Shown: in pieces, positions 13,539-33,353 of the stretch
How positions within the stretch are numbered: the stretch's first letter is position 1
Layout: every line of letters starts with the position of its first letter
Assembly: GCA_045803545.1 (NCBI GenBank)
Contig: JBJMOW010000005.1
Span: 1,440,001 to 1,504,000 of the forward strand
From: Gemmatimonadaceae bacterium
GTDB lineage: Bacteria; Gemmatimonadota; Gemmatimonadetes; Gemmatimonadales; Gemmatimonadaceae
Direction: 5' to 3'
DNA: 64,000 nt
The notes under the pieces: generated by a model
What the model saw: the letters and a program-made list of their open reading frames with translations, nothing else
Databases searched by the model: none
Told to the model about the DNA's origin: nothing
Translations under genes and position numbers: made by a program

Positions 13539-13759
13539 TGGAGAGCGTTGAACCCGGGCGGGTAGAAAAGCCGTCGATACTTGGCGTTGATGGGTGTAAG
13601 GGTGGGTGGATTGCGGCCGTGCACGGTGGCGCGGCCGCCACACGTCTAGAGTTTTTTCCATTTTTCGACCAGATCGAATCGGGGGCTTTCTTCGGGGCGC
13701 TATCTCTTCAAGAGACTTTCGCGCTTTTTTTCAAGTTGTGCGGGCGGCAAAGAACCTGA
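13538..13759 (+). pseudogene. Truncated DUF429 family (predicted RNase H-like nuclease) N-terminal fragment
   Basis: GTG overlaps the previous stop; ILGVDGCKGGWIAA is the DUF429 N-terminal motif; frame ends after ~70 codons, running into the convergent island gene. Confidence 0.6.
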
Positions 13760-15099
13760 GCGTTGGCTGTATTTGTCTGGCCGCCTCGACTATGCGGTAT
13801 AACATGATCCGCATCATACTCGCGCCACGCAACCTCAGATTCGTCAGGAGTCTTTCCTTCAGAGAGGCACATCTTGCAGAGCCCATTGTCGCGTCTATAG
13901 ATCGCGATCCGCTCGCTCTCGTCGAATTCACGTTTTTGATCCTTCGTTTTGAGTGACTTCTTCCTGCGGGTCAGGTCCGCAAAAAACAGTTGCCTCAGGA
14001 CCCGAAGTCGAATCTCAATATCCTTCGCCGAATGTTGCCGGTGATCCGAGAAATTCAACACATCTAAATCGGTTTCTCGCCGTTCGCGCCATCGCTGATG
14101 GAATGCAATTGTGAACTTGAGGAAGTCTTTGCTCTCGTCTGGCCCGAATACGTAGTACTGTAAAAGGTGACGCAACAAAAGATAGAACGAGATTATGAAG
14201 TACTCGATCCGAAACTCTTTCATTCCATCCCCGCCTTTTACCATCGGATCCGCCGCGAAAACTTTGTAAAAAGCATTCATGATTTTCAGGGTGTCCTTGG
14301 CAATTGGGAAACTCTCAAATGACTCGTCCCCTATGCCTGTAGGCTGTTCCCATTTCTCAATGAAGTCGCCCACTTCAGTGTCTCTGATGTCCGCAACACC
14401 GTCGTTCTCCTCGAGTATTACTAGCCGCGCGAGCAGAGCGAGATGCTGCATACGGTCGTTGTTTCTGTCGATGACTTTGAAGAATTGATGCTTGTGCGGA
14501 TTTTTGTCGAGCGGACGGTACGACGTATAATCGAAGCTTATATCGTCGGCGTATTTGACTATGAAATTCCGTGACAAGCTAGCTACGCGCGCATGGGCTA
14601 TTTCCATGAAAGTAAGGCTCTCTCCTTGTTGGAGGCGCCAAAAAATGTCAGCTGCAATTCGTTGGTGATCAGGGTTCGTGGGAGTTTCGATCCCTTTGAC
14701 GACATCGGCATTAAACTTCAGCTCCTTGTCGACAAACTTTCGGAGTTCCGTTGGTAGCTGGCTGTATTTTTTCCCCGGTAATGATGCGTGCACATCCTTG
14801 AGCGATGAAGGCAGGACCAGCTCATCGCTGAAGAACTCCTTGGCCGTCGTGATCCGTTGCTGGCCATCGATGATTTCCTTCGCAATCTTTTGATCGGAAA
14901 GCCGAACGTATCTCACCACTATTCGAGGTACGTAATATCGGCGGAAAAGGCTGTCCAGGAGCGCTAACTTCTTTTTACGACTCCATACACTTTTCCTCTG
15001 GTAGGGCGGGCGGACGACGTAATCATCCCAGTAGGCGTAGAAGTCCCTAAGCGGGATACTATCAAAAGTGACGTCATAGCTAGTCAAAGGATCAAACAC
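13708..15099 (-). CDS. DUF262 + C-terminal HNH endonuclease (GmrSD-like)
   Basis: PPYQR..VW, IIDGQQR, IFWRLQ.G DUF262 motifs; C..C and DHVIPHSRGG.T...NAQVLC..HN HNH; GTG 15099 has a GGAGG SD. Confidence 0.88.
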   Translation of the reverse strand: MFDPLTSYDVTFDSIPLRDFYAYWDDYVVRPPYQRKSVWSRKKKLALLDSLFRRYYVPRIVVRYVRLSDQKIAKEIIDGQQRITTAKEFFSDELVLPSSLKDVHASLPGKKYSQLPTELRKFVDKELKFNADVVKGIETPTNPDHQRIAADIFWRLQQGESLTFMEIAHARVASLSRNFIVKYADDISFDYTSYRPLDKNPHKHQFFKVIDRNNDRMQHLALLARLVILEENDGVADIRDTEVGDFIEKWEQPTGIGDESFESFPIAKDTLKIMNAFYKVFAADPMVKGGDGMKEFRIEYFIISFYLLLRHLLQYYVFGPDESKDFLKFTIAFHQRWRERRETDLDVLNFSDHRQHSAKDIEIRLRVLRQLFFADLTRRKKSLKTKDQKREFDESERIAIYRRDNGLCKMCLSEGKTPDESEVAWREYDADHVIPHSRGGQTNTANAQVLCRPHNLKKSAKVS

Positions 15100-15236
15100 G
15101 CCAAGACCTCCGACGTTATTGGCAGGCGAGGCAAATCGCACTGAGTCCGGACGGCTACTTTAGTTGTTTGCCGACGGGCGCACAACTGGGTACGCCCCCA
15201 GGTGCCATAAAGCTCTAAGCGTCGCCTCGCCGCGCT

Positions 15237-15803
15237 TTGATTGACCATCCTAATACTCTAGCCGAGGCAATCCTCGCCAATATCGATATGAACACGGACA
15301 AAGTCTATCAACGCATTGGAGAATTTGTGGTTAGTTACCAATGGGTCGAAGACAAGTACCGGCAGATCGGTCAGTTCATCCTGGATCCGAATCGAACTGT
15401 TTGGCCTCCTACCGCGCTGCGCAATGAGACGACGCAGCAACTGTTAAAAAAGGTCACGCGACTCTACGAGGAAGCACTTTCAACCATGCATCTCCCACAT
15501 GAAGGCGAAATGCGTGCATCCTTCCATGAGACTACGGCTCGCTTCAATAAGCTTCGACAGGTCCGGAACAGAATTCTGCATTCGGTTTACATCGAGATCA
15601 AATCTGGCGGCGAGATCCGGGGTCTTCTCAGAGCAGATATTCAGAATCGCCAAAACGAACAGCAACTCGATCCTCCTGCACAAGAATTCTTGTCAGATAA
15701 GTCATTCGAAAAAATCATGGAACGACTTGGATCCGTCGCTATCGACATTAGCAGGCATTACATGCAGCTACTTCATCGGTTCGGCGTTCATTTTGGGGCC
15801 TGA
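15237..15803 (+). CDS. Putative HEPN-domain protein
   Basis: Apparently helical protein with IGEFVVSYQWVE near the N-terminus and an Rx4H motif RNRILH. Confidence 0.55.
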   Translation: MIDHPNTLAEAILANIDMNTDKVYQRIGEFVVSYQWVEDKYRQIGQFILDPNRTVWPPTALRNETTQQLLKKVTRLYEEALSTMHLPHEGEMRASFHETTARFNKLRQVRNRILHSVYIEIKSGGEIRGLLRADIQNRQNEQQLDPPAQEFLSDKSFEKIMERLGSVAIDISRHYMQLLHRFGVHFGA

Positions 15804-15857
15804 CAAGCCTTAGGACCGTGACGTAAAAGACGACACGAATGCGACGCTTAAGCAAAT

Positions 15858-16547
15858 TTATTTCCGCGGCTTGGCTGCATCGGAGGCGCTCCATTCTGGT
15901 CGGGGTGTCCGGCCAGATTGACGAGTCTCTACTCGTATAACGAAGTCGCGAACGTCTGGAATTGAGTAGTCTACCGTCAGTTCGACAACTGCATTGCGCT
16001 TCGTGGCAATCTTTCTGCGCGCAGACCAATCAAAGTCCTGAATTCTTTGGAACGTTCGTCGTCCGCGAGGGAATGGGTACGGCTTCGTCGCGCCGGTATT
16101 CATCGGACTGACTGTCACGCAGTCGCTGTGAACACCGAGAAGAGCGCTGGTATCTAAAATTAGAACCGTGTGCTGTCTATCTCGATACGCGCGCGCATCA
16201 AGCATGCCCTCCAACCTGTGCTCACTAACCCAGAAAAACACTCGGCGATTTATCGTTTCGTACCACTCTTTGGGCGTGAGACCGTCCTGAAGGCAGCGTA
16301 AGAGTCCGCGGTCGTCAAGTGGAAGATTGTCCCTTAGCTCAAAGCTACCGATCCCAGGTCGGGAGAGCCGATTTATTTCGTGGCGCCGTTGCGATTCGAG
16401 CGCTGCTCTTTCTGAAGCGCTAACGGACACGAGATCGAGTATCGCGCTCGTGCTAAGCAACCCGTGTTGTCGGATGCTTGGCCAGCTCCCGTGCGTAGCC
16501 ATGTGATACAGCCACGGGTACTCGCTTATAAACTGGTCGATCTTCAT
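15858..16547 (-). CDS. DarT-like ADP-ribosyltransferase (DUF4433/DUF7002-like)
   Basis: LYHM....W.SI..HGLLS, RVFFW and distal ELTV..SIP parallel the DarT YHIT...GLLS / VPFY / AEFLV motifs. Confidence 0.7.
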   Translation of the reverse strand: MKIDQFISEYPWLYHMATHGSWPSIRQHGLLSTSAILDLVSVSASERAALESQRRHEINRLSRPGIGSFELRDNLPLDDRGLLRCLQDGLTPKEWYETINRRVFFWVSEHRLEGMLDARAYRDRQHTVLILDTSALLGVHSDCVTVSPMNTGATKPYPFPRGRRTFQRIQDFDWSARRKIATKRNAVVELTVDYSIPDVRDFVIRVETRQSGRTPRPEWSASDAAKPRK

Positions 16548-16575
16548 CGAGCGAGGCTAACACAGGTTGATCCGA

Positions 16576-18189
16576 CTACCAAATTCGTCTGTCTATAATG
16601 TTCCGGTAGTGAAATCGTGTAACGATCAGCGACACACGTACAGCTGCGACACGTTCTACTTCCTCCACAAACTGAATTGTGTTTTCATCGAGTTGCTCGA
16701 AACGCCTTGCCTTGCGGTTCTCTATCCCGAGATAGTCCGTAAAGCTTAGGGCAATGTCCGTCGGTCCGTTCAAGGAAACCGCTTGCCGCAATTGCTTCCA
16801 ATCAAACTCGGCAACACGTCGGCTACGTTTTGTTGTTGTTGTAATCTCAGCTTCGGTGAGTTCTTTGAGAGGAATTTCCGAGCGGTGGGAGACATCCTGC
16901 CAAGTAATTTCGGTACCCATTGGGCCTGATGTTCCCCCGGCAGGGCTTTCTACCCTAATCGGGTAAGTCCGGCAGACCATTATTGCACGTCGAACCCGGG
17001 ACGGAGCAATTCCCGCATCGGCCAAGCAGCCGCTGACGCTAGTCTCGCGCGACGTGACGAAGGGGTACGCGCCGTGGTGTAAGCTGAGCGCAGTGCCCTG
17101 CGTTCCCTCTAGGAAAACGCGTCTTCCTTGTGCGAACGCGTCGTCCAGAAGGTCAAGAGTGGGGCGCACATACGGCTTGAAGTCTTCAATATCTCGAGCT
17201 AAGCGGACTGGTGGGGGTAAGGCACCCCGAAGAACCTTTCTCGCAGTCGCGAAGCCCACGCCCTGTCCTGTAGAGCCAATCGAGCCTTTGAGAGATTTTC
17301 CCTCTGATGCAATGTCCTCATCCTCGATGATCATCGCTTGTGGGTCCACAAAAAGCCGACCCACTTCCAGTCCACATTGATTGACTTCTTCAAAAAACTT
17401 CGAAGGACGGATCACTGATCCTGGGCCAAGCACGATTTGAGCACCTGGCGCCCTCATTGTGCCCGAGGGAATGTGATAGAATTTCGTGGGTTTCGGCTCC
17501 TCATATACGGTATGGCCGGCGTTCGGTCCGCCAACTCGCACGAGAACGTCGTATTCGGGGGCGAGATAAGCTGCGATGTTCCCCTTACCCTCACTCCCGT
17601 ACTGACCGCCGATCAAAACGTCTACGAGACGCTGGTATGAACGACCATACAACCCGAGGCGAGCAGCAACTCTAGCGAATACGTCTTCGGGACGGGAACG
17701 CGCCGTGTCGATTACAATGTCCGCAAGCGCCGCGAGGCTTTCGACATTTGCTTCAGTCGGGTCTGACCGAACTGCATCATAGCTTTCCAGCTCTTTAACC
17801 GCCCCTTTACGATGGAGGTAGCGACGCTCGAGAATTTCGATCGGCGCAGTCACATGAACATGGACGACACGCGGACCGAAGCCCTTTCTAACAGACTCGA
17901 TTTGGCCTGCCGTCCGAACAGCATCCACAAGCACATTTGTCCCGTCTGGGACACTCGTCACATAGCGAGCAAGCGCATCGCCTACCCACGCGCCCTTTGT
18001 CGCCTCATCAAGAGCGGCTCCGCCACCCTGCAATGCTGTCCGCTCGAGGGCGGAATCCTTAAGTGCAGAAATTAATTCTCGTGTTTTTAGCCATGCGAAC
18101 TTGTAAGTGTCACTCAGGTTCTCGGCGAGTGTAGTCTTGCCGCCAGCAACGGGGCCCGAGAGAAGAACGACCAGCCCCAAACGCTGCAT
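16576..18189 (-). CDS. P-loop (d)NMP kinase fused to a PurZ/PurZ0-like adenylosuccinate synthetase homologue
   Basis: N-terminal GPVAGGKTT, R..LQ..G and VDAVR; C-terminal GGQYGSEGKG, GPNAGHT, GSTGQG, EGTQG, YPFVTS, RTYPIRV, TTTTKRSRRV, SFTD. Confidence 0.85.
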   Translation of the reverse strand: MQRLGLVVLLSGPVAGGKTTLAENLSDTYKFAWLKTRELISALKDSALERTALQGGGAALDEATKGAWVGDALARYVTSVPDGTNVLVDAVRTAGQIESVRKGFGPRVVHVHVTAPIEILERRYLHRKGAVKELESYDAVRSDPTEANVESLAALADIVIDTARSRPEDVFARVAARLGLYGRSYQRLVDVLIGGQYGSEGKGNIAAYLAPEYDVLVRVGGPNAGHTVYEEPKPTKFYHIPSGTMRAPGAQIVLGPGSVIRPSKFFEEVNQCGLEVGRLFVDPQAMIIEDEDIASEGKSLKGSIGSTGQGVGFATARKVLRGALPPPVRLARDIEDFKPYVRPTLDLLDDAFAQGRRVFLEGTQGTALSLHHGAYPFVTSRETSVSGCLADAGIAPSRVRRAIMVCRTYPIRVESPAGGTSGPMGTEITWQDVSHRSEIPLKELTEAEITTTTKRSRRVAEFDWKQLRQAVSLNGPTDIALSFTDYLGIENRKARRFEQLDENTIQFVEEVERVAAVRVSLIVTRFHYRNIIDRRIW

Positions 18190-18201
18190 TTACGTGGAGT
18201 G

Positions 18202-19620
18202 CTAATTGAGTGATAGCGCAGTCTGTTCCGACTGCTGTGTGTTATGCGGGCGCGCGCTAGGAAGGTCGTACACGGTGACCCTCACGCCCTCCGGGCCAAA
18301 CGATGCGCGAATTAACGGCTCTATCACATCCCAGGACCCGCCCGCTTGACCGCAGCCGATTCTCGGCATATGGACTGTCGAGCGCGTCAACGCCGCCAAT
18401 TTTGCGACTTCTGCTAACCCTTTACGTAATGCGTCGTACCTGATCTTCGGCCGGACTGATGGTTTGTATCCGTGCTGGGCAACGATGCTAGCAACCATTA
18501 ATTCGGAATTCACATCTGCGATTCTTACGTTGCCCAGGCAAAGGTGGCGGCGGTCATCCGAAACCCACTGCTGGAAGTCGCTCTGCACGGAGGGGAGCGC
18601 ACTCCTTAAAGCCGAAGCGAACCCGCCTCCTCCCCAGTTCGGCGTCGCGTCATTCACAACGTGCACGATGATTCGCCGGCCACCAACACTTGGCTTGGTA
18701 GCGTCGCCTCGGACATATGTCAGCACGGGCTCTGATGGAGCGACCTCCGAGTCCGCGAATCGCAGCATTCCAACGACCCTCGGCAATCGCGCTCCCGGAT
18801 AGGGAGGGATTCCCACGCATTCAGCGACGAATTGCTTAGCATCCGTCTCTTGTGACACCAGCTGCCACGACTCCAGGCCTTTCGCTGTAAATCCAACGCC
18901 GACACAGCGTGCCGCAATAGTGCCCTGGGGCAGTAGGTCTCCTCGGGCTCCCCGCAAGTCGTTAGGCCAAGAATCCGACCCGATCAAGTACTCAAGCCGA
19001 TAGCGGCCGCGCCGAAGACCATCGTCTATATGCGCTGCGCAGAACATTGCGATCCGCAGATCACTCAACCGTGCAGATCGTATAAAAAGCGCTTCGGTAG
19101 AAACGTCGAACAGTTTTTGTTGATTGACGAGCTGATCGATATCGGTGTGTGTAGCTTTTTGGGAAGCCATTGCACCAAAAGGCATCAGTAATTCTGCAGC
19201 CGCGATGTTGCACAATGCTTCAAGCTGCCATTCGTCCCCTTTGACTTCCGTCCTCGTGGCTCGGTGTCGGACGGTATCCGCGTAATCCGGAAACAGCGTA
19301 TGAGCGATCTCGTGAGCCAAAGAGTAGTTCAGGCGGCCGCGCGGTCGGGTCGGGTTGAACTCGATGCGCGCCGACTTCCCTGTAGGAACCGTACGAGCAT
19401 CCCGGACGTCGGCGTTGGGCACTGTCTTGATTCCCAACAAATCCGCCAATTCGACTGGATCGTACGGAGGTCCACTCCATCCCCGATCAAGCGCACGTGC
19501 GACGGTCTCCCGTGCTTTCTCAGTCACGGCCGCGACCGGATCCACATCTCCGGCCAACGATAGCACCGATGCATTGGTCCAACGGGGGAGGCGCTTTGTC
19601 AATGGCTGGGACGCCAGCAC
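18202..19620 (-). CDS. ImmA/IrrE family metallopeptidase fused to a DarG/TARG1-like macrodomain
   Basis: YSLAHEIAH (HExxH) plus E.LCN..AAELLMP; C-terminal GDAT...IVHVVN...WGGGGFA...HMPRIGCGQAGGSW macrodomain. Start codon uncertain (19620 GTG or 19602 TTG). Confidence 0.88.
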   Translation of the reverse strand: MLASQPLTKRLPRWTNASVLSLAGDVDPVAAVTEKARETVARALDRGWSGPPYDPVELADLLGIKTVPNADVRDARTVPTGKSARIEFNPTRPRGRLNYSLAHEIAHTLFPDYADTVRHRATRTEVKGDEWQLEALCNIAAAELLMPFGAMASQKATHTDIDQLVNQQKLFDVSTEALFIRSARLSDLRIAMFCAAHIDDGLRRGRYRLEYLIGSDSWPNDLRGARGDLLPQGTIAARCVGVGFTAKGLESWQLVSQETDAKQFVAECVGIPPYPGARLPRVVGMLRFADSEVAPSEPVLTYVRGDATKPSVGGRRIIVHVVNDATPNWGGGGFASALRSALPSVQSDFQQWVSDDRRHLCLGNVRIADVNSELMVASIVAQHGYKPSVRPKIRYDALRKGLAEVAKLAALTRSTVHMPRIGCGQAGGSWDVIEPLIRASFGPEGVRVTVYDLPSARPHNTQQSEQTALSLN

Positions 19621-20072
19621 ACATCTACACCTGCAAAGGGTAGATGTAATGTTTCGGAAACTTCAGGGGGACGAAAGGTCAATTCTCTATCACCCAAATG
19701 CACATTTCATATCATTGGCGAGCCGACGTATAGCTTAGGTGTTTCTTTTCATGCGAATATGATCTACCTGACAGGGCGATTACGACCTGCGCAACGCCAA
19801 TTATGGAAGCACGAAACCCAGTGGATGTTAGCCTTTTCGTTCACCATGGGCAGAATTCATTCATCCGACGCGCGTTAGTCTGCATTACGTGTCTTTGAAG
19901 TCATTGCCGCAGAACAATCTTGGAATCCCCGCGCCACGTATCGAAGTATTATTGTGCGTCGAGCAGCAACAAGAATAACGAGCTTGAAGATTACGTTAAC
20001 GCGGTGCGAGCGTGTCCGGAACGCGAGAATTCCCCGCTCTCGGCGAGTTAAGGGTTAACAGGTCAGGGATAC

Positions 20073-20675
20073 ATGCTGACGCTCCAAGATATCGTCGCTG
20101 ATTTCGCGCGCGCATTGAAGGCTGTCGATACGCAGGCGCCAGTTGGTAGTTCGCGGACGCGGAGGTACAAGCCGGGCGTCGGACCGCTGACGGAAGTTGC
20201 AGCTGTGGGAGCTGCCCTCGGACATCTAAGAAAGTTCAGCCGCGAGTACGAGCACGCGTCGCCAGCAACATATCCCAACAGCCGCCAAATTTGCGACCTG
20301 TTAATCCCGGGGGCCTGGGCAATTGAAGTAAAGCTCGTACGACCCTTTGGCGACAATGGTCGCCCTGCAGAACACTGGGCCGAGAATATTCTTTATCCTT
20401 ATAGCGGGACGACGAGCGCAATTGGTGATTGTTACAAGCTCCTGGAATCAACCTTTGCGGAAAAGAAGGCCGTTATCGTATTTGGGTTTGAACATACACC
20501 TCCGCAGCTTCCGTTGGAGCCAGCCATTCGCAGCTTTGAACTGATCGCACCACAGGTTTGTGGGATTGCGCTCGGGCAACGTGTGTCAGCCGATTTCACC
20601 GACTGCATACACCCCTCTCATCAGCAGGGTTATGTATATGGCTGGGAGGTCAACGGCTCGATTAGAGGAGCTTGA
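20073..20675 (+). CDS. Putative PD-(D/E)xK nuclease
   Basis: CDLLI...WAIEVK catalytic-like motif; immediately upstream of the methyltransferase. Confidence 0.6.
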   Translation: MLTLQDIVADFARALKAVDTQAPVGSSRTRRYKPGVGPLTEVAAVGAALGHLRKFSREYEHASPATYPNSRQICDLLIPGAWAIEVKLVRPFGDNGRPAEHWAENILYPYSGTTSAIGDCYKLLESTFAEKKAVIVFGFEHTPPQLPLEPAIRSFELIAPQVCGIALGQRVSADFTDCIHPSHQQGYVYGWEVNGSIRGA

Positions 20676-20732
20676 TCACTGCGGGGGTCTTTTGTATTCG
20701 CTCGCTCCGGTACGGCAAGATAGTTTTCTTAC

Positions 20733-21959
20733 ATGAACGGTGCTCCCAAACTAGTTAGCCTTTTTACCGGTGCCGGTGGCTTAGATCTTGGCCTTGAAGC
20801 GTGTGGATTTGAGACTGCGCTTGCGGTCGAGATGGATCCCGATGCTTGCGACACTCTGCGACTGAATCGGACCTGGCCAGTCATACAGGCTGATATCAAC
20901 TCTCCCCAAGCGTCCTCAAAGGATATTCTTAGACAAGCTGGCCTGAAGGTCGGAGAAGCAGCTTTGCTTACGGGCGGGCCACCCTGTCAGCCTTTTAGTA
21001 AATCGGGTTATTGGGCAGGCGGTGACTCGAAGCGGCTGAACGATCCTCGTGCCTCAACGCTCGCTGCATATCTGCGGGTTCTGCGCGACATTCAGCCTCA
21101 AGCGTTCGTCATTGAGAACGTGCCGGGTATTGCATTCAGCGCCAAAAGCGAAGGCATCGAATTTTTAGAACGGTCAATCGATTCCATCAACAAAGAAATC
21201 GGAACTCGCTACTCGTTCAGACCCAAGCTTCTCAACGCCGCCGACTACGGCGTCCCGCAGGAGAGGCAACGCGTATTCATCGTAGGCCACCGCGACGGCA
21301 TGCAGTTCAAGTTTCCGGCCAAGACACATTACGCGCCCGATGAGCACTCTGCAGTATCGCAAGACTCGCACTATTTCACGGCATGGGACGCTATAGGAGA
21401 CCTCGAATCAGACGATGACGAATCGCTTCGGCTGTCAGGTAAGTGGGCAGATCTGCTACCTTCGATCCCCGAAGGTCAGAACTACCTTTTCCATACGATG
21501 CGGGGCGATGGAATTGCTCTTTTTGGTTGGAGGCGCCGCTATTGGAGCTTTCTTCTAAAACTCGCGAAGGCTCTTCCGTCTTGGACCATCGCGGCGCAGC
21601 CCGGACCCGCGATCGGACCGTTCCATTGGAAAAATCGGCGTTTATCGGCTACTGAGCTTTGCCGTTTGCAAACTTTCCCGGAGGGATACAAAATCGCGGG
21701 GCGGCGTAATTCGATTCAACGACAGTTGGGGAACGCTGTTCCGTCGGCGCTGGCTGCACAGCTGGGAGCGGCGATTCGCAAACAGCTTCTCGACGGAGGT
21801 GAGTGCATATCCGCCGCCGCTCTCTTTCCGAAGAGACGTGGGGCACCACCGCCGCCCGAACAGCCGCAGTCCGTTCCCGACAAATACTTACATCTCGAAG
21901 GCGAACACGCGGCGCATCCCGGAACGGGAAAAGGATACGGCGCACTCACTAGAGTTTGA
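20733..21959 (+). CDS. dcm: DNA (cytosine-5) methyltransferase
   Basis: Motifs I FTGAGG, IV GGPPCQPFS, VI ENV, VIII YGVPQERQR, IX-X RLQTFP / QLGNAVP. Confidence 0.95.
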   Translation: MNGAPKLVSLFTGAGGLDLGLEACGFETALAVEMDPDACDTLRLNRTWPVIQADINSPQASSKDILRQAGLKVGEAALLTGGPPCQPFSKSGYWAGGDSKRLNDPRASTLAAYLRVLRDIQPQAFVIENVPGIAFSAKSEGIEFLERSIDSINKEIGTRYSFRPKLLNAADYGVPQERQRVFIVGHRDGMQFKFPAKTHYAPDEHSAVSQDSHYFTAWDAIGDLESDDDESLRLSGKWADLLPSIPEGQNYLFHTMRGDGIALFGWRRRYWSFLLKLAKALPSWTIAAQPGPAIGPFHWKNRRLSATELCRLQTFPEGYKIAGRRNSIQRQLGNAVPSALAAQLGAAIRKQLLDGGECISAAALFPKRRGAPPPPEQPQSVPDKYLHLEGEHAAHPGTGKGYGALTRV

Positions 21960-21962
21960 GTG

Positions 21963-23132
21963 TTACCCCTGCGCTGCTTTCATTAGAACTTCTTCGAGAT
22001 CGTTCGACCATGAATCGTCGACGGACACCTTGTTCGATAGCTTTCCAACACAGGTTGGATGCGCTTGAAGCGCCTGCGTAGTCTTGCTCCGAAAGGTCCA
22101 CGTCTCTGACTGGGCATGCAGACATGCCGCGACAACGTCGAAATCGCTGGGGCTATAGTACCTTGAGCACGGATTGGCGAGCGACGCCCTCGTCCGCATA
22201 AAATCGAGCCTCGCATTCCCAAATTTATCGGGCTTACGCAGTACGTTCTTACATTCGAGAAGAACGGGGTTACCGCGAGTCATAACAACACGGAAATCGG
22301 GCGATCCGTCTCCAGTTAACTGCTCGCAGCGCTTTAGTCTCTTAAACTGCTTTAATACATCTGCGAGGTGGCGCTCAGCTACCCAGCCGCGTACCGCCAT
22401 CTTGAGGCGCGGCGCTTGGCTTATTAAGTCGAGAATTTCAGAGCGAGGAAGATCGAATTCTTTCTCGAGAGCGTGGACTCGCTCGAGAGAGACAATCGGC
22501 AGCACATTGGACGGATCTGACTCCCGTTCGAGTGTCACAGATCGAAAACGTTCGGCGACTAGCTGGCGATGCCCTTGATCCTCCCCAAGCACCTCACGCT
22601 CAAAAAGGATGTATCGGAGGAAGTTCTCCGGCTTGCCACCCACAACGACCTCGACAGGTGAATCAGGCGTGCCGCGTTGATCACGCTCCCACGCATACCA
22701 GCCCTGCGAAAGAATTTCGTCCACGTGATGTTGCTTGAACTCCTTCGAGATGAAAAAGCGTGTGGGACTATTTAGGACAGGGTCGACGCCAACGAAGAAG
22801 TCTTGCTCGGGGTTGACGCCGAGCATGAGAGTCGTGTAAAGACCGTACGGATCCTGCCAGAGGTTATGAAGCACACCATCTTTCGACCCATACTTTATCT
22901 GAAACCGGTGCTCGTCGGCGGGGCGATTCTTGGTGACCCTTTCATTGGCTAAGAACGCATAAGCAACGATTCCCAACCTGTATCCCGAAGGAGTCTCGAA
23001 GGTCACTTGGAATGGAGCGGTGCCCGGTTGCGAGGCGCGGATTATAGAGCACCCACAGACTTCTAGGGACCTATAGATGAAGCGGGCGATCGGCTCTCGT
23101 GCGGCTTTGCTTACGCGATAGACTTCGAACAT
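21963..23132 (-). CDS. Methylase-associated PD-(D/E)xK restriction endonuclease-like protein
   Basis: PDFRV...LLECKN motif; N-terminal RPADEHRFQ domain reminiscent of methylase-associated domains; convergent with the MTase, overlaps vsr. Confidence 0.65.
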   Translation of the reverse strand: MFEVYRVSKAAREPIARFIYRSLEVCGCSIIRASQPGTAPFQVTFETPSGYRLGIVAYAFLANERVTKNRPADEHRFQIKYGSKDGVLHNLWQDPYGLYTTLMLGVNPEQDFFVGVDPVLNSPTRFFISKEFKQHHVDEILSQGWYAWERDQRGTPDSPVEVVVGGKPENFLRYILFEREVLGEDQGHRQLVAERFRSVTLERESDPSNVLPIVSLERVHALEKEFDLPRSEILDLISQAPRLKMAVRGWVAERHLADVLKQFKRLKRCEQLTGDGSPDFRVVMTRGNPVLLECKNVLRKPDKFGNARLDFMRTRASLANPCSRYYSPSDFDVVAACLHAQSETWTFRSKTTQALQAHPTCVGKLSNKVSVDDSWSNDLEEVLMKAAQG

Positions 23133-23596
23133 GCGCGGTGGCGAAGAAGTCTCTCGATCCTATCAACAGCCTTCGAAGGGCGGCGAAGCAAATCGGTTTC
23201 CCACACTCGTATGACCTTCCATCCCGCGGCCCGCAACAGCCGGTTAATCCGGCGGTCACGCTTGATATTTGATTCAATCTTGGGAATCCAATAGTCGGCG
23301 TTACTCCCGTTGAGTAGCCGTTCACGTCGCGCTTTCCAGTGGCGCCCGTGCCAGAAATCGCCGTCGAGAAACACCACTATTCGATCCTCAGGAAACGCGA
23401 AGTCCGGTCGCCCCAAGAAACCGGAAGAGGCAGATTTTGCTCGTAAACCGCGACTTCTTAACGCAGTGCGAAGGATTCGTTCAGGCTTAGTATTCGAGCT
23501 TCGATTGCCTTGCTTTGCGCGCGACGCATGGGGCGAGCTAGACGAAAAATTGGAGAACCGCGGAACTCTCCTTCCGATTTGCTGAGAACGACCCAT
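23111..23596 (-). CDS. vsr: Very short patch repair endonuclease
   Basis: NTKPE, GRPD, FLDGDFWHG, YW..KI..N..RD, GWKVIRVWE. Start uncertain. Confidence 0.92.
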   Translation of the reverse strand: MGRSQQIGRRVPRFSNFSSSSPHASRAKQGNRSSNTKPERILRTALRSRGLRAKSASSGFLGRPDFAFPEDRIVVFLDGDFWHGRHWKARRERLLNGSNADYWIPKIESNIKRDRRINRLLRAAGWKVIRVWETDLLRRPSKAVDRIERLLRHRACSKSIA

Positions 23597-23953
23597 GCGG
23601 ATAAAGAAAAACGGCGTGTGCTCGCCGGGATGAGGTTTCCCTGCTAGGCGTCCGGACCAGAACTCGCGTGATCCAGACCAAAACGTGTTGCGAGTTACGT
23701 CAGGGGCAGAACGACTCTTGTCCCAATGTAAAGTCAAATCGCTACTCATTCAAATCTGCTGGTCGGCGAATCCTGCCCGGGACGCTGGTCGCGTTCATCT
23801 GAGGCTTAATCCTCGCAGAAGATCGCCGTGCCTACGGCTATTTCGACGTCCGGCGAGGTGGATATGAGGCTACCGTCCGGAATGGTTCCGAGTTGCGCGG
23901 GTCAAGCGCCACCGCCAACAGGAAACCCCCAGCCCGACGGAACTTGCCCGTCA

Positions 23954-26043: not shown

Positions 26044-26047
26044 AAAG

Positions 26048-26120
26048 TTGCCCCTCCTGGGCTCGAACCAGGACTCTCCTGATCCAGAGTCAGGCGTGTT
26101 GCCAGTTACACCAAGGGGCA
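26048..26120 (-). tRNA. tRNA-Gln (anticodon CUG), CCA not encoded
   Basis: Reverse complement TGCCCCTTGGTGTAACTGGCAACACGCCTGACTCTGGATCAGGAGAGTCCTGGTTCGAGCCCAGGAGGGGCAA folds as a cloverleaf with GTTCGA T-loop. Confidence 0.96.
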
Positions 26121-26754: not shown

Positions 26755-29424
26755 CTATCTGGCAAGCAAACGCTCAAACCGCGGATTGCCGCGCAGCGGA
26801 TCCCACCACGGGTCGACGCGCAGCTGCGGAACGGACACATCGCTCGGAATCGCAAGAAGCTGCTCGAGATTGGTTATCGCCTCGTCGTACGATCCGGCGA
26901 GCACCGCGTTGCTGGCGATAGCATAGAGATTGTTCGAGCCGCGTATCGCATCGGCGGAAAGGGGCGTGGTCTGCAACGAGAGCCTCCCCTCTTCCAGGCT
27001 GCGCTTCCTGTCACCCTTCGCCGCGTAAGCCTCGCCGAGGAAGGCGTGGAGGCCGGCGTCGAGAAAATTTCCCCGCATCGCTTTTGGTGCCTCCGCGATC
27101 AACGAATCAGCGAACGCGAGCTGAGCGGGCTTGTTTCTGGTGTACACACTGAACGTCAAACTCGCGACAAGGAAAACCATTCGGTTCTGGATGTCTTTCG
27201 CAGAAAGGGCTTGTTGCATGTCGCGACGGATTTCCGGATCAGTCAGCGCGGGCCAGTTCAGCAGCAGCACTCCGCGCTTCCACTGGTCGGGATCTACTTG
27301 TCTTTTCGCCTCCGTTAGAATCGCCACGGCTTTGTTCACATCACCTGTACTAAGCAAAATGAGATTGGAAAGGTTGCCGTAGCCTAGCAATTCGTCCGGA
27401 GCCAGCGGGATGGCTCTTTCACAAACTGCCTGGGCTTCAGTGTAGTGACGTGTGAGCGTCAGGCTTTCGCACAGATCTGCGACGTATCTCGCATTCCTCG
27501 GATCGAGCTGTGCAGACCGTTCCAAATCCGTGATCGCTTCGCCCCACTTGTTCCGCCGGCGCTCGATCAAACCCTTCAGGTAAAGTACCTCGGGATCATT
27601 TGGCGAGATTTTCTCCGCCAGAAGCAGAGTCTCGAGCGCTTTGTCGTAGTCCAACTTCGCGCGGTAGTAGTAGGTCGCCCTCGCGATGTACCCGGCGGCC
27701 AGGTCTGGGTCGAGAGCGAGCGCGGTATCAATGGCCGCCTGAGCCAGCGCCAATCGGTGCGGGTTGTCGTCCGCCTGAAACCAGAAGGCGGACAGGTGTG
27801 CGTTACCGAGCTGGGCATAGGCGAGCGCAAATTTCGGGTCCCGCTCTACCGCGTGCTGCAGATATGCTGCTGCCCTTAAATAACCCGACGGACTGCCAAT
27901 ACTCGTCGCAGTGCCGGACATCAGGCTTTTTCCGCGCAGGAAATAGTCGTAGGCTTGTGCGTCAGCTGTGGGCCGCGCGGACAGTTGCGTTCTGTCGGAC
28001 TGACTCAGTTTCACTCTCATTGCTTCGGCGACGTGTTCCGCCACCTTTCCCTGGATGTCGAATACGTTGGTTGCTTCCGCCTGGTATGGCTCTGACCATA
28101 TCTGGGCGCCGCTGCTGCTGCGCAGCAGAACGGGTGTGATCTTGACGAGACTATGCCCATTTCGCGATCGATCCCAACGAACGGTTCCGGTGAGGAGATA
28201 GGTGGCGCCGAGCTCCTTCCCGATTTGTTGCGGAGGCTTGGTGGTATTGGCGTAGCTCTTTGCGCTCTGCCTGCCAATTACTGTGAGTCCACCGACGCTT
28301 CCCAGCTTGCTCGAGATTTCGTCGGTCATCCCCTCGGCGAAATACTCGTCATCCTTGTTTCCGAGATTGTCGAAGGGAAGAACGGCGAGAGATGGAGTGG
28401 TATCCGCGACAACCGCCGGGCCAGCATCGACAGCTCGATGTGTTCGCCAATAGGCGGTTGACGATGCGAGCAGCAGGACGACGATCGCACCCGCGACCGC
28501 CATGAACGTTCCGCGTCTGCTCGAAGGGTACGCGCGACCTGGCGCAATCGCGCCGATATGCGGTGTCGTCGCACCGCTCGGCGTGACGGCTGCTTCGAGG
28601 TCGGCCAACATTTCCGCGGCAGACTGCGGTCGATCCGCGGCGTGTTTCTCCAGCGAGCGCGTAATGAGAGATGACAGCTCGCGCGGCACCGAAGGACGCC
28701 GCACGTCGATTGGTTCCGGCTTCTGCGTCGCGTGCGCGGCGAGCATCGCCTGTGGTGAGCGAGCGCTGAACACCTGCTGCCCGGTGAGCATCTCGTACGC
28801 CATTGCACCAACACCGTAGAGATCGGCGCGATGGTCGGTAGCAGGATCCGCCGCCGCTTGCTCTGGCGACATGTACGCGGGCGTGCCCAACGCAACGCCG
28901 AGGGAGGTGAGCGACGACCCGGGATTGGTCGACGCGCTCAGCGCTTTCGCAACGCCGAAATCGGCGACGACCGCGTGATTGCCGGTGAGCAGCACGTTGT
29001 CGGGCTTCATGTCGCGATGAACGACACCGTGCTCGTGTGCGTAGGACAGAGCGCTCAGAACGTCGCGCAGAATTCGCGCGGTATCGTGTACCGGAAGCTC
29101 GCCCGACCGCGACAGCCGGGCGCGCAGCGACTCGCCCTCGATGAATGGCATAGTATAGTAGGGGAGTCCATCGCTGATCCCGGCGCTAAGAACCGGAACG
29201 ATGTGCGGGTGCTGCAGCTTCGCGGCGAGCTGAATCTCGCGCCGGAAGCGCTCGATGTTGACGGTAGCCGCCAGATCCGGCAGCAGTACTTTCACTACGA
29301 CCTTGCGGCCGAGCGAGTTGTCCTCGGCGATGAAAACCCTCGACATGCCGCCACCACCGAGCTCGCGCTCGAGGGTGTAGGCTTCTCCCAAAGATTTCTG
29401 GAGCTGTTCGCGCAGCTCGGTCAT
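26755..29424 (-). CDS. Membrane Ser/Thr protein kinase with TolB-N-like and TPR domains
   Basis: GGGGMSRV, VVKV, HRDMKPDN, DFG, GTPAYMSPE; TM; SLAVLPF; TPRs; DPWWDPLRGNPRF tail. Confidence 0.93.
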   Translation of the reverse strand: MTELREQLQKSLGEAYTLERELGGGGMSRVFIAEDNSLGRKVVVKVLLPDLAATVNIERFRREIQLAAKLQHPHIVPVLSAGISDGLPYYTMPFIEGESLRARLSRSGELPVHDTARILRDVLSALSYAHEHGVVHRDMKPDNVLLTGNHAVVADFGVAKALSASTNPGSSLTSLGVALGTPAYMSPEQAAADPATDHRADLYGVGAMAYEMLTGQQVFSARSPQAMLAAHATQKPEPIDVRRPSVPRELSSLITRSLEKHAADRPQSAAEMLADLEAAVTPSGATTPHIGAIAPGRAYPSSRRGTFMAVAGAIVVLLLASSTAYWRTHRAVDAGPAVVADTTPSLAVLPFDNLGNKDDEYFAEGMTDEISSKLGSVGGLTVIGRQSAKSYANTTKPPQQIGKELGATYLLTGTVRWDRSRNGHSLVKITPVLLRSSSGAQIWSEPYQAEATNVFDIQGKVAEHVAEAMRVKLSQSDRTQLSARPTADAQAYDYFLRGKSLMSGTATSIGSPSGYLRAAAYLQHAVERDPKFALAYAQLGNAHLSAFWFQADDNPHRLALAQAAIDTALALDPDLAAGYIARATYYYRAKLDYDKALETLLLAEKISPNDPEVLYLKGLIERRRNKWGEAITDLERSAQLDPRNARYVADLCESLTLTRHYTEAQAVCERAIPLAPDELLGYGNLSNLILLSTGDVNKAVAILTEAKRQVDPDQWKRGVLLLNWPALTDPEIRRDMQQALSAKDIQNRMVFLVASLTFSVYTRNKPAQLAFADSLIAEAPKAMRGNFLDAGLHAFLGEAYAAKGDRKRSLEEGRLSLQTTPLSADAIRGSNNLYAIASNAVLAGSYDEAITNLEQLLAIPSDVSVPQLRVDPWWDPLRGNPRFERLLAR

Positions 29425-30609
29425 CTGGCCTGTCGCCTACCGGTGAGGTGCTGCGCGGGCGCGTGGCGCCGTGGTAGCGAGAAAAGCGCACCATGCGGAG
29501 TTCCGGCCACCTGCCACTGCGAGCCCAGTCCCAGCTGTCCTGTTTTCTCGTCGAAGTTCGCGATGACTATCCGATGCACGAGATCGCCGTATCCGGTGAC
29601 GACTGCACGACGATGGTTCGGCTCGAGCGCGAGCCAGTGCGGAACGTCGTTCGCGCCGAGCACCAGGCGTGATACTTCCCTTGGCGCATTGGGATTGGAA
29701 ATGTCGAGACTCACCACTGCGCTCCACGCGGGTACGGTCACCAGGTAGTAGTGTCCGGCGATTGCCGGCACCGCGCAGTACGTGCCTGGTCTTCGGGGGA
29801 ATGACGACACAAGCTGGCCTGATGGGTTTGACCCGTCGAGCCCACGCAGCACGTAGAGCCCGCACGCAAACGTAGAGACCAACACCGTGCGTCCATCGGC
29901 GAGGAGCCTTGGCTCCGCCGTCATCGACGCTTCGTCACCGCGCGCGCCCTGCGGCAGCTCAAAGGTCTTCAGCAGCTTCATGTCAGAGAGCCTCCACAAT
30001 TGAAGCGTCGGAATTTCGGCGGTGCCGTCCATATCCGTCGTCGTCGTGACGATGCGATCGAGGCGCGGAATTACCACCGCCGAATAGGGACGCACGCGCC
30101 GGTCGATGCCGGCACCGTTTGCGGAAGTCCATCTTACCACCCGGCCACGATTCGTCAGCTCGGCGATTCCGCCCGGCTCGACGCCGAGAGAATCGTGTTG
30201 CATCTGAAAAGTCGCCAGCACGTGGCCATTCGGAAGTCGCACGTAACTGTGCGGATGCATCATGCCGGCGACGTCACCGAACTGTTCAGCGATTCTTGGG
30301 TGCGTCGGGATCACTGGTGTCGAAAATGAAAGTCTGACCGGTGGCAAACCCATTCGCGAAGAGCCGGTGATCGGCCGGCATTTCGTATTCGGTGTGATGC
30401 GGCCGGTTCCTGTGGCCGGGGACGGGCACGGTTGCAATCACCTGTCCGTACGCCGCGGATGATACGCGCGCATCGAACACAGCGAGAAAATCGGGTCGAG
30501 CCGAGTCGGCCGACGCGGTCCAGGCGTAGAGATAGTCACTCGAGGCCTGCTGCGCCGCTATGGACGACGACGCGATCGCGGCGGCAGCGGTGAAGATCAA
30601 TAGACGCAT
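29421..30609 (-). pseudogene. Secreted SBP56/methanethiol-oxidase-like beta-propeller; frameshift at ~30300
   Basis: Signal peptide and DFLAVFD...PHHTEY in one frame, HPHSY...PHWL...PHGALF in another; the frames join with one extra base. Confidence 0.65.
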
Positions 30610-30647
30610 CGCAGAGTGAGGAGAGAGGTTTCGGAACGCGGTGTTGT

Positions 30648-33338: not shown

Positions 33339-33353
33339 TGTTGAACCCCGCGC

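Follow-up and report, generated by a model that had tools for sequence, protein, structure and literature searches.

This locus raises the question of why a Gemmatimonadaceae bacterium with a canonical purA should also carry a second adenylosuccinate synthetase gene that resembles phage enzymes. The gene lies on the minus strand of a 64,000-nucleotide window, the whole stretch of DNA analysed here (contig JBJMOW010000005.1, positions 1,440,001 to 1,504,000). A preliminary description, made from the sequence alone, had read it as a PurA homologue at 16576-17640 with a signature of phage PurZ or PurZ0. That span holds for the synthetase part, but the open reading frame (ORF) actually runs from 16576 to 18189 and encodes 537 aa, with an N-terminal kinase domain of approximately 180 aa that had been omitted. 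The preliminary description covered two thirds of a kinase–synthetase fusion gene, and missed both the fused kinase and the conserved operon, in which the fusion sits between genes for a peptidase–macrodomain protein and for a DUF7002 protein with a predicted DarT fold. As the kinase is fused and the operon with the DarT-fold transferase and the macrodomain is conserved, the evidence favours a conflict system over a metabolic paralogue.

Family and fold searches agreed on the two domains of the fusion. Pfam matched PF00709 (E 6e-57) plus CPT/AAA_18, the AlphaFold2 model had a pLDDT of 93.8, and Foldseek with this model returned PurA, PurZ and PurZ0 together with UMP/CMP and adenylate kinases. 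Residues 1-180 (17650-18189, minus strand) form a P-loop domain like that of nucleoside monophosphate (NMP) kinases, in which G17, K18, R50, D89, R92 and R123 are invariant in 136/136 aligned rows of the family; a profile search matched it to AdkA-like 3lw7 (E 4e-8), and PHROG gave weak matches to guanylate and deoxynucleoside monophosphate (dNMP) kinases (E 6e-4 to 4e-3). Residues 187-537 (16576-17631, minus strand) form a short, PurZ-like synthetase domain of the Ser type, assigned from trees and from alignments to E. coli PurA and five phage enzymes (the PurZ of phiVC8, S-2L and PMBT28, and the PurZ0 of Archimedes and Wayne). Its marker residues are S199, H226, S306, Q364, T379, R407, I411 and V413, the last with an insertion, followed by T450, R455, R457, F483, D485 and F526. 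Public DNA contigs aligned over the operon with zero base differences, although the main contributing dataset may be the source sample; no RNA dataset appeared among those listed.

Three motifs had been pointed out in the preliminary description, and all three were found in place on the minus strand by alignment with E. coli PurA: GGQYGSEGKG (17581-17610, residues 194-203), the aspartate-binding substrate loop EITTTTKRSRRV (16813-16848, residues 448-459) and SFTD (16735-16746, residues 482-485), the nucleoside triphosphate (NTP) specificity motif that is TKLD in PurA. In the first, Ser199 takes the position of E. coli Asp13, and Ser was found there in 120/120 top homologues, from a search not selected on the motif, and in every PurZ and PurZ0 sequence aligned. 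In the second, Arg455 corresponds to Arg303 and Thr450 to Gly298, Thr being the PurZ state, which confirms the proposed PurZ-like signature of Ser for Asp13 and Thr for Gly298. A fourth motif, RTYPI (16957-16971, minus strand), places R407 and I411 at R230 and I234 of phiVC8 PurZ, which we take to be named PurZ signatures, where PurA has K267 and T271. Arg and Ile are present at these positions in every PurZ and PurZ0 aligned and are invariant in 136/136 family rows. S306 aligns with T128 of E. coli PurA. The catalytic residues K202, H226, Q364, T379 and R457 are invariant in all 136 rows, and the aspartate-holding residues T452, T453 and R457 and the PurZ guanine-pocket residues are conserved, alongside F526, which is particular to the family, and aspartate-loop positions that vary. 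As 64 metagenome rows among the 136 were collected with a pattern containing Ser, residues were recounted on unselected proteins, and R407, I411, F483 and D485 were found in 70/70. Such conservation speaks against the motifs having arisen by chance. Read from the alignments, the active site is supported as PurZ-type rather than PurA-type.

The NTP motif is a hybrid. F483, at the K331 position, is Phe in PurZ and Met in PurZ0, whereas D485, at the D333 position, is Asp in PurA and PurZ0 and Asn or Gln in PurZ, and both residues are kept in 136/136 rows. Because Phe is as in PurZ and Asp is as in PurA and PurZ0, GTP is the likelier donor, which supports the earlier suggestion of GTP from the kept Asp. 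PurZ0 uses GTP. A sentence in section 24 of PMC12884076, in the part of that text available, lists the ATP and GTP preferences in the opposite order. For the sugar, the available text of PMC8342488 gives two causes of deoxy selectivity: the 303-equivalent residue is distant from C2', and an insertion draws a conserved Val toward C2'. The fusion family has this Val (V413) with a following insertion, as in PurZ, and 118/136 rows fit the pattern, with 3-9 residues before SG. Arg303 had been described as kept in the window gene, which is correct, and as replaced in phage PurZ, which is true only of the S-2L/PMBT28 type, with Leu; phiVC8 PurZ and both PurZ0 have Lys. Across the kinase-fused family this position is Arg in 106 rows, Lys in 25 and another residue in 5 of the 136. 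As Lys is found in the dGMP-using phiVC8 PurZ and the position varies within the fusion family, Arg303 was rejected as a ribose marker. The ribose preference of the synthetase leans deoxy, and dGMP, Asp and GTP are its fairly probable predicted substrates.

By curated score the fusion falls below every cut-off: 201 bits against 395.55 for TIGR00184 (PurA), 274 against 368 for PRK04293 (archaeal PurA) and 211 against 300 for NF038379 (PurZ). In the main tree (42 of 117 rows, IQ-TREE, LG+G4), with which a FastTree of all 117 rows agrees, the 14 kinase-fused rows form one clade (100/99) within a Ser-type group (99/99) that also holds PurZ (100/100) and PurZ0 (100/100). This group stands apart from canonical PurA and from one Asp-type short PurA, and the branching order inside it is not resolved. 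Adding viral rows lowered the support for the whole kinase-fused set to 86/76, while a core of 25 rows kept 99/96. A tree with PurA, PurZ and PurZ0 had been proposed as a check on the gene, and it places the fusion clade beside PurZ and PurZ0 and apart from housekeeping PurA.

Residue by residue, the fusion family shares with phage PurZ (phiVC8, S-2L; NF038379) the short fold, Ser for Asp13, Arg and Ile at phiVC8 230 and 234, Thr at Gly298, Phe in the NTP motif and the insertion after the ribose-facing Val. It differs in having Asp for Asn or Gln in the NTP motif, and so no NFxN/Q motif, and in its fused kinase, its Arg at 303, its score below NF038379, its separate clade outside PurZ, the absence of datZ/mazZ from its synteny and from the genome, and its cellular operon with a DarT-fold gene. 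With PurZ0 (Gordonia phage Archimedes, Arthrobacter phage Wayne; 7vf6) it shares Ser for Asp13, Asp in the NTP motif and a basic residue at 303; unlike PurZ0 it has Phe for Met beside the Asp, GSEGKG instead of GSEAKG, a fused kinase and a position outside the PurZ0 clade, and neither dutZ nor dmtZ lies beside the window's fusion gene. Housekeeping PurA is set apart by the replaced Asp13 of GDEGKG and by TIGR00184 and PRK04293 scores that are too low. The closest solved sequence and fold is the short archaeal PurA of Pyrococcus horikoshii (5k7x), which differs from the fusion in keeping Asp13, Lys and Thr at 267 and 271, and a TGRRRR loop. A canonical purA, which the preliminary description had proposed to look for elsewhere in the genome, was found at G000 C6:72468-73781 with the Asp, EFGATTGRPRR and TKLD, and purB and gmk of the same genome score above their cut-offs. 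DatZ and MazZ homologues, noted earlier as absent from the window, were not found in the whole genome either (93% complete), nor in 84 operon loci by BLASTP with S-2L DatZ and MazZ, and the view that wholesale synthesis of a Z (2-aminoadenine) genome is unlikely is supported. The kinase-fused PurZ-like lineage is real and previously uninterpreted, and by their defining features lies outside PurA, PurZ, PurZ0, DarTG and Kongming, although it is predicted to act as a PurZ that supplies a DarT; databases label these fusions adenylosuccinate synthetase, probably wrongly.

The DUF7002 gene (15858-16547, minus strand) starts 28 nt downstream of the fusion gene and encodes 229 aa (PF22531, E 4e-67). 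Its model (pLDDT 95.3) has E. coli DarT1 8baq as best fold (Foldseek E 6e-5; Z 10.2, root-mean-square deviation 3.5, 164 residues aligned), followed by DarT2 7omu/7omv (7omu Z 9.5), with the Tpt1 structure 7yw2 close behind (Z 8.2). DarT1 and DarT2 both modify DNA bases, in line with the proposed role. H15, R55, W106, N150 and E189 are invariant in 68/68 rows, and R55 and E189, putative counterparts of the catalytic DarT1 R52 and E152, stand in the expected sequence order. At the sequence level there was no PF14487 or PADLOC DarT match, the profile against five DarT sequences gave a probability of 11% with the N-terminal motif alone aligned, and against PDB sequences DarT1 appeared only at E 0.33. 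Going by the fold model, DUF7002 is quite likely to be an active nucleic-acid ADP-ribosyltransferase. A complex prediction of the kinase–synthetase with DUF7002 scored 0.00, which counts neither for nor against the proposal.

On the other side, 12 nt upstream of the fusion gene, lies the gene for a 472-aa protein (18202-19620, minus strand) in which an IrrE/CapP-like HExxH metallopeptidase is fused to an ALC1-like macrodomain of the SCO6735/BT1257 type. It matches Pfam PF06114, PADLOC capP (E 2e-17) and DarG (E 1e-7), and by profile 2fg1/2afc/5e3b (E ~1e-50 to 1e-46), IrrE 3dte and CapP 7t5t. SCO6735 strips thymidine-linked ADP-ribose from DNA and requires Gln85 and Asn27, according to the available text of PMC9411070; by motif position, counterparts are present as Q382 (48/48 rows) and N323 (44/48 rows), which with the profile match assigns the macrodomain to this type. 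The protein is predicted to be a regulator and an ADP-ribose eraser. In five loci (L050, L054, L070, L075, L076) the peptidase–macrodomain gene has, directly before its start or overlapping it, a gene of the sigma-70-like kind, suggesting a regulatory extension.

Conservation of the operon was followed in 84 loci, made up of the best 80 of 592 metagenome matches, two named genomes and two relatives, which reduce to 76 clusters at 90% identity and 55 at 70%. Many of these loci also went into the profiles used to count genes, but most are recovered by BLASTP when only the proteins of the window serve as queries. The gene order is peptidase–macrodomain, kinase–synthetase, DUF7002, with the DUF7002 gene next after the fusion in 79/81 informative loci and the peptidase–macrodomain gene before it in 74/76. 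On plasmids, DUF7002 was found at adjacent coordinates for 11/11 full-length fusions, and the fusion beside 11/13 near-full-length DUF7002 matches. The peptidase–macrodomain gene was not found in the three plasmid loci tested by profile, and therefore the conserved core is the synthetase with the transferase. Two loci (L002, L027) have the fusion with neither DUF7002 nor the peptidase–macrodomain gene found by profile. The first of these, L002:7279-11378 from Tardiphaga, holds an unknown gene of 241 aa, a kinase that is not fused, the fusion itself and a peptidase of the HExxH type, with no DUF7002 by profile.

The operon is patchily distributed. A full fusion was found in 3/301 genomes of the phylum, and DUF7002 in 5/401 genomes and in 0/6 genomes of the same genus. 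Three of those five genomes have the full operon, one (G330) has a broken operon and one (G248) a lone transferase gene. In G330 (L141/L146, C1 ~188200-189600) the operon was split by an insertion sequence, leaving the start of the peptidase–macrodomain gene, the last ~80 synthetase codons and an intact DUF7002 gene, so that G330 keeps an intact transferase but has neither eraser nor synthetase, and the intact transferase of G248 lacks a synthetase. That lone intact transferases persist, as do plasmid loci without an eraser, would be expected if the transferase is harmless in the absence of Z. No DNA match to the L129 operon was found in the E. coli collection.

Around the operon, the window has a low-GC defence island (13708-23749), with a GC of 0.50-0.555 compared to ~0.60 elsewhere, and GC3 of 0.54-0.61 compared to 0.69-0.76 in five genes outside. 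The island also holds a DUF262-HNH nuclease (13708-15141), a cytosine methylase (20733-21959), an MTaX1-domain protein (21963-23132) and Vsr (23111-23749). Across loci, the neighbours of the operon include Gabija, Lamassu, CBASS, AbiE, restriction-modification and SIR2 genes. In a flanking set of 145 of 153 ORFs from 65 loci, delimited with a rough ORF caller, 37/145 matched PADLOC at E 1e-8, in 29 loci (GajA, LmuA/B/C, a CBASS cyclase and effector, AbiEi/ii, restriction-modification proteins); 4/35 window ORFs used as control also matched, every one a Ser/Thr kinase. The raw difference is not significant, and only after post hoc removal of generic-domain matches did the comparison become 27/145 against 0/35 (P = 0.003). 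The operon itself gave no complete system in PADLOC 2.0 (2023 library), only partial matches to capP, DarG and dCTPase-kinase, with none for DUF7002. A prophage origin of the window gene was rejected, with no phage genes among the window ORFs scanned, and DUF7002 had zero matches in 50,697 phage records. A defence role of the operon is likely.

Several other features of the window were observed. Positions 20073-23749 look like a restriction-modification cluster, with a 200-aa protein of no family, the cytosine methylase, the convergent MTaX1-domain protein and Vsr. A tRNA-Gln(CTG) lies at 26047-26120 (minus strand), and a degenerate copy of 54 nt and 76% identity lies 2.4 kb away at 23653-23706; this pair at the right edge of the low-GC island could be an old attachment-site remnant, and no integrase was found among the ORFs scanned. 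Four long Ser/Thr kinase genes are present at 26755-35945 and 45268-47970, where the PADLOC PD-T4-6 matches span the kinase domain alone. Scans for promoters, terminators and repeats returned either no signal stronger than in shuffled sequence or none linked to the operon.

Phages carry the fusion as well. A survey of IMG/VR, covering the best 80 of 122 matches, gave 11 loci with the fusion, three with DUF7002 and eight (seven distinct) without it. In the transferase-less loci (L149, L150, L152, L155/L169, L156, L157, L158 and L161) the fusion lies among replication genes: DNA polymerase A matches in L150, L152 and L156, helicase and primase in L156 and L161, and a dNMP kinase and 5'-nucleotidase in L150. 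A fusion of a deoxyribosyltransferase-like and a MazG-like domain lies near the viral copies in L149, L152 and L158; it recalls, in function only, the DmtZ-DutZ pairing of PurZ0 phages as given in the available text of PMC12884076. Of five phage records that carry the fusion, one has the terminase family PF03237, and DUF7002 was absent from all five when searched. In the tree, some phage copies are basal to the transferase-linked group and others fall inside it, a pattern compatible with capture from phages, although the direction is not shown by the branching. The transferase-less viral contigs are candidate Z-genome phages of a new type.

The domain anatomy, the PurZ-type residues, the conserved but patchy operon, the folds and the separate purA, purB and gmk were observed directly, and from them we infer the catalytic and causal steps that follow. 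Our best reading, a tentative one which falls short of probable, is that the operon is an anti-phage module that would make dZTP from dGMP released by infection, with a DarT-like enzyme that would ADP-ribosylate Z-containing DNA. On infection, phage degradation of host DNA would produce a surge of dNMPs including dGMP, which could act as the trigger because dNMPs are not the normal route to dNTPs. In the available text of the Kongming preprint (10.1101/2024.12.20.629578), phage T5 breaks host DNA down to dNMPs, and the host makes its dATP by a route other than dAMP. The synthetase would then convert dGMP, Asp and GTP to dSMP, host PurB would convert dSMP to dZMP, the fused kinase and host Ndk would raise dZMP to dZTP, and polymerases that are blind to A versus Z would insert Z into phage DNA. 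According to the available text of PMC8342488, dZTP is accepted by E. coli polymerases, and expression of PurZ, MazZ and DatZ places Z in E. coli DNA. DUF7002 would finally ADP-ribosylate the Z-containing phage DNA and stall its replication. The acceptor could be Z itself through its 2-amino group, like guanine in DarT1, or thymidine in a recognised motif that contains Z, which would be a better fit to the macrodomain class. Removal of stray marks would fall to the macrodomain, and regulation to the peptidase. A transferase that reads Z could also attack phages with already Z-substituted genomes. Given the rest of this proposal, coupling through Z in DNA rather than through a soluble signal is about an even call. 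The wider statement, that a captured phage Z-base enzyme makes viral DNA a Z-marked target of a Z-reading DarT-like enzyme in bacteria, and probably in archaea, is rather unlikely.

Genes for nucleotide enzymes near the operon, like the replication genes beside the viral copies, count towards a deoxy substrate. A YfbR-like 5'-deoxynucleotidase lies beside 5/6 plasmid loci opened, an adenylosuccinate lyase gene (purB) lies 64-68 nt downstream of the operon in L057:8306-9775 and L060:3559-5025 and 655 nt upstream of it in L081:2560-3897, and a deoxynucleoside kinase gene overlaps the operon in L073. The three purB loci group together in the tree and their neighbours look archaeal, so they are not independent.

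A number of points weigh against our proposal. The closest solved relative of the synthetase domain by both sequence and fold is the IMP-using Pyrococcus PurA (E 8e-52; TM-score 0.93 of target), and the trees contain neither archaeal Asp-type PurA, of which this best solved match is one, nor archaeal PurZ0. Arg303, which contacts the 2'-OH in PurA, is kept in the majority of the rows counted above. Host Gmk already serves phage PurZ, according to the available text of 10.1101/2025.10.22.683976, which leaves the fused kinase unexplained, and it may act on another product. DarT1 reads its base with N104 in the available text of PMC11543638, and Asn150 of DUF7002 was rejected as the reader of a guanine or Z 2-amino group; at the analogous motif, DarT genes that adjoin DarG macrodomains have Asn in 3 and His in 2. 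In simulations SCO6735 held dG-ADP-ribose unproductively, by the available text of PMC9411070, which disfavours N2 of Z as acceptor. DatZ was found in 0/5 of the phage records carrying the fusion (two of them at least 90% complete), with none by BLASTP, and the MazG-like domain of the phage loci had no pairwise match to S-2L MazZ; with no DatZ or MazZ match, the phages that carry the fusion are not proven Z-genome phages. The raw enrichment of defence neighbours was not significant (P = 0.11), the accessory nucleotide enzymes are few, come partly from related lineages and may belong to separate systems, and the lone transferase genes may simply be silent. The activity and phenotype of the operon are predictions from sequence and models.

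The alternative that survives best, though we consider it unlikely, is a soluble signal of the Kongming kind: the fusion would make dZDP, dZTP or the succinylated nucleotide, the last phosphorylated directly by the fused kinase, and this product would switch on DUF7002 to modify ordinary DNA or drain NAD+. The immune signal of Kongming is itself a base-modified dNTP, dITP, in the available text of 10.1101/2024.12.20.629578; a dedicated kinase, doubled in L002, L129, L153 and P0241, suits a product that host kinases refuse; and a thymidine-type macrodomain fits modification of ordinary DNA. However, DUF7002 consists of one domain of 229 aa and lacks a receptor module; in Kongming the receptor is a protein of its own. 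In a guard variant the nucleotide would restrain the toxin until the phage depletes it, but the lone transferase genes of G330 and G248 would then be toxic if expressed.

It is decidedly unlikely that the operon has two loosely coupled arms, in which DUF7002 and the macrodomain form a DarTG2-like thymidine toxin-antitoxin released by the peptidase, while the synthetase-kinase drains dGMP and GTP and poisons the pool with dZTP. The DarT fold and the DarG-class macrodomain fit this arrangement, and expression of the Z-cluster was toxic in E. coli in the available text of PMC8342488. Against it, the core is the synthetase with the transferase, the macrodomain gene is dropped in L127-L129 and L153, and a constitutively active DarT without antitoxin should not persist.

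The possibility raised in the preliminary description, that GMP is used, appears poorly supported. In its full form, ZMP and ZTP would enter RNA, or an NAD analogue would serve as donor for DUF7002 and leave a mark missed by phage ADP-ribose erasers, which we regard as improbable. The kept Arg303 (106/136 rows) would favour it, as would the nearest solved folds of the kinase, which are ribonucleotide kinases, and the non-standard pose in which NAD docks in the Lmac_3114 family model, described in the available text of PMC12522546. But Arg303 is undiagnostic, since dGMP-using phiVC8 PurZ has Lys there, the PurZ-type insertion follows V413, relatives lie in phage replication modules with deoxynucleotide enzymes among the neighbours, and, as GMP is abundant, a ribo-Z product would arise without infection.

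Very improbable, too, is a different product, either another N6-substituted purine made from another base or amino acid, or a synthetase that mainly senses nucleotides. The family has its own clade below the PurZ, archaeal PurA and PurA cut-offs, with F526 and the variable aspartate-loop residues, but T452, T453 and R457 that hold aspartate, and the PurZ guanine pocket are conserved, and no catalytic residue is lost. The idea of a second housekeeping enzyme, an adenylosuccinate synthetase of the archaeal short type, in spite of the best PDB and NCBIfam scores to archaeal PurA and the database label, is hardly credible with Asp13 replaced in 120/120, a canonical purA present, a patchy distribution, a fixed link to a DarT-fold gene and the tree position found here.

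Known defence systems share parts of the arrangement. With DarTG1 and DarTG2 the operon shares a DarT-fold transferase with conserved His, Arg and Glu and a DarG-class macrodomain; it differs in having no PF14487 or PADLOC DarT match, a macrodomain that is SCO6735-type, peptidase-fused and dispensable, and an obligatory-looking nucleotide synthetase between the two. Kongming (KomABC) shares the predicted logic of an enzyme that changes the base of a dNMP, a kinase step and an NAD+-using effector, but no protein family is common to both: its deaminase, HAM1-like receptor and SIR2 effector families were not found in the operon, which has a built-in kinase rather than a phage-borrowed one and an effector of the ADP-ribosyltransferase fold rather than SIR2.

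A 2025 survey (PMC12522546) describes, in its available text, a DarT-like Lmac_3114 family with the motifs Hxx, FFW and xxE, a neighbouring adenylosuccinate synthetase domain in 60% of cases, and an operon of AAA domain plus synthetase, a pairing also seen here. From these motifs and the context, Lmac_3114 is very likely the DUF7002 family, so the pairing of transferase and synthetase is already in print. In the available text the partner counts as an ordinary synthetase, with control of NAD+ supply as its suggested part; the PurZ signature, the role of the kinase, the peptidase–macrodomain gene and a defence role go unmentioned there, and it reports a NUDIX variant not found in the present loci. 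Our literature search found no paper that mentions DUF7002, and among the matches listed none joins PurZ or aminoadenine to an ADP-ribosyltransferase defence system. The PurZ signature, kinase fusion or defence mechanism was found neither there nor in the available parts of PMC9503650, PMC13434031 and the Kongming preprint. PMC12884076, by its available text, sampled at most two prokaryotic PurA sequences per phylum, and would therefore likely miss the kinase-fused family.

Other cellular arrangements were also observed. The rhizobial two-gene versions (L127, L128, L229, L230, L231) lie near a YfbR-like 5'-deoxynucleotidase and a 450-460 aa protein of no Pfam or PHROG family, with an additional Pua-like/calcineurin phosphoesterase gene in L231. 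On a Sinorhizobium medicae plasmid (L125:4296-7057), a stand-alone Ser-type synthetase is coupled to a gene resembling dCTP-deaminase/dUTPase, next to an HD-like gene in divergent orientation, which is a second cellular PurZ-like arrangement; a homologue of this deaminase-like gene follows the operon in L055:4827-6155, ahead of a PHP-domain protein. A Rhizobium leguminosarum plasmid (L126:4369-10990) has a short Asp-type purA with folE, purB, queE, IMP dehydrogenase, nitrile hydratase, queC and a HAD hydrolase, a set that presumably resembles toyocamycin/sangivamycin 7-deazapurine biosynthesis. Bacillus phage vB_BpsS-140 (L123:2950-4071) encodes a Ser-type enzyme with an ATP motif that is the sister of PurZ. 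As dozens of representatives that stand alone and are of the Ser or Gly type (P0304-P0390) also lie outside PurZ and PurZ0, the Ser-type group is much wider than the named clades.

In the literature found, Z-base synthesis is a phage trait for evading restriction. The existence of a PurZ-like family that is widespread in cells and linked to a DarT-fold transferase suggests that hosts turn this chemistry to defence, whether by marking the DNA of invaders or through a base-modified signal that would be new, following dITP. This raises the questions of cellular action against Z-genome phages and of a cellular role of Z nucleotides, which are approachable with three small genes. If the proposal is true, no defence directed against Z-genome phages was known before this one, the kinase-fused synthetase would be a third, GTP-using PurZ lineage common to uncultured phages, and a Z-selective ADP-ribosyltransferase would serve as a reagent for the detection of Z-DNA. 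The kinase-fused lineage adds a branch to the evolution from PurA to PurZ, together with candidate Z-genome phages.

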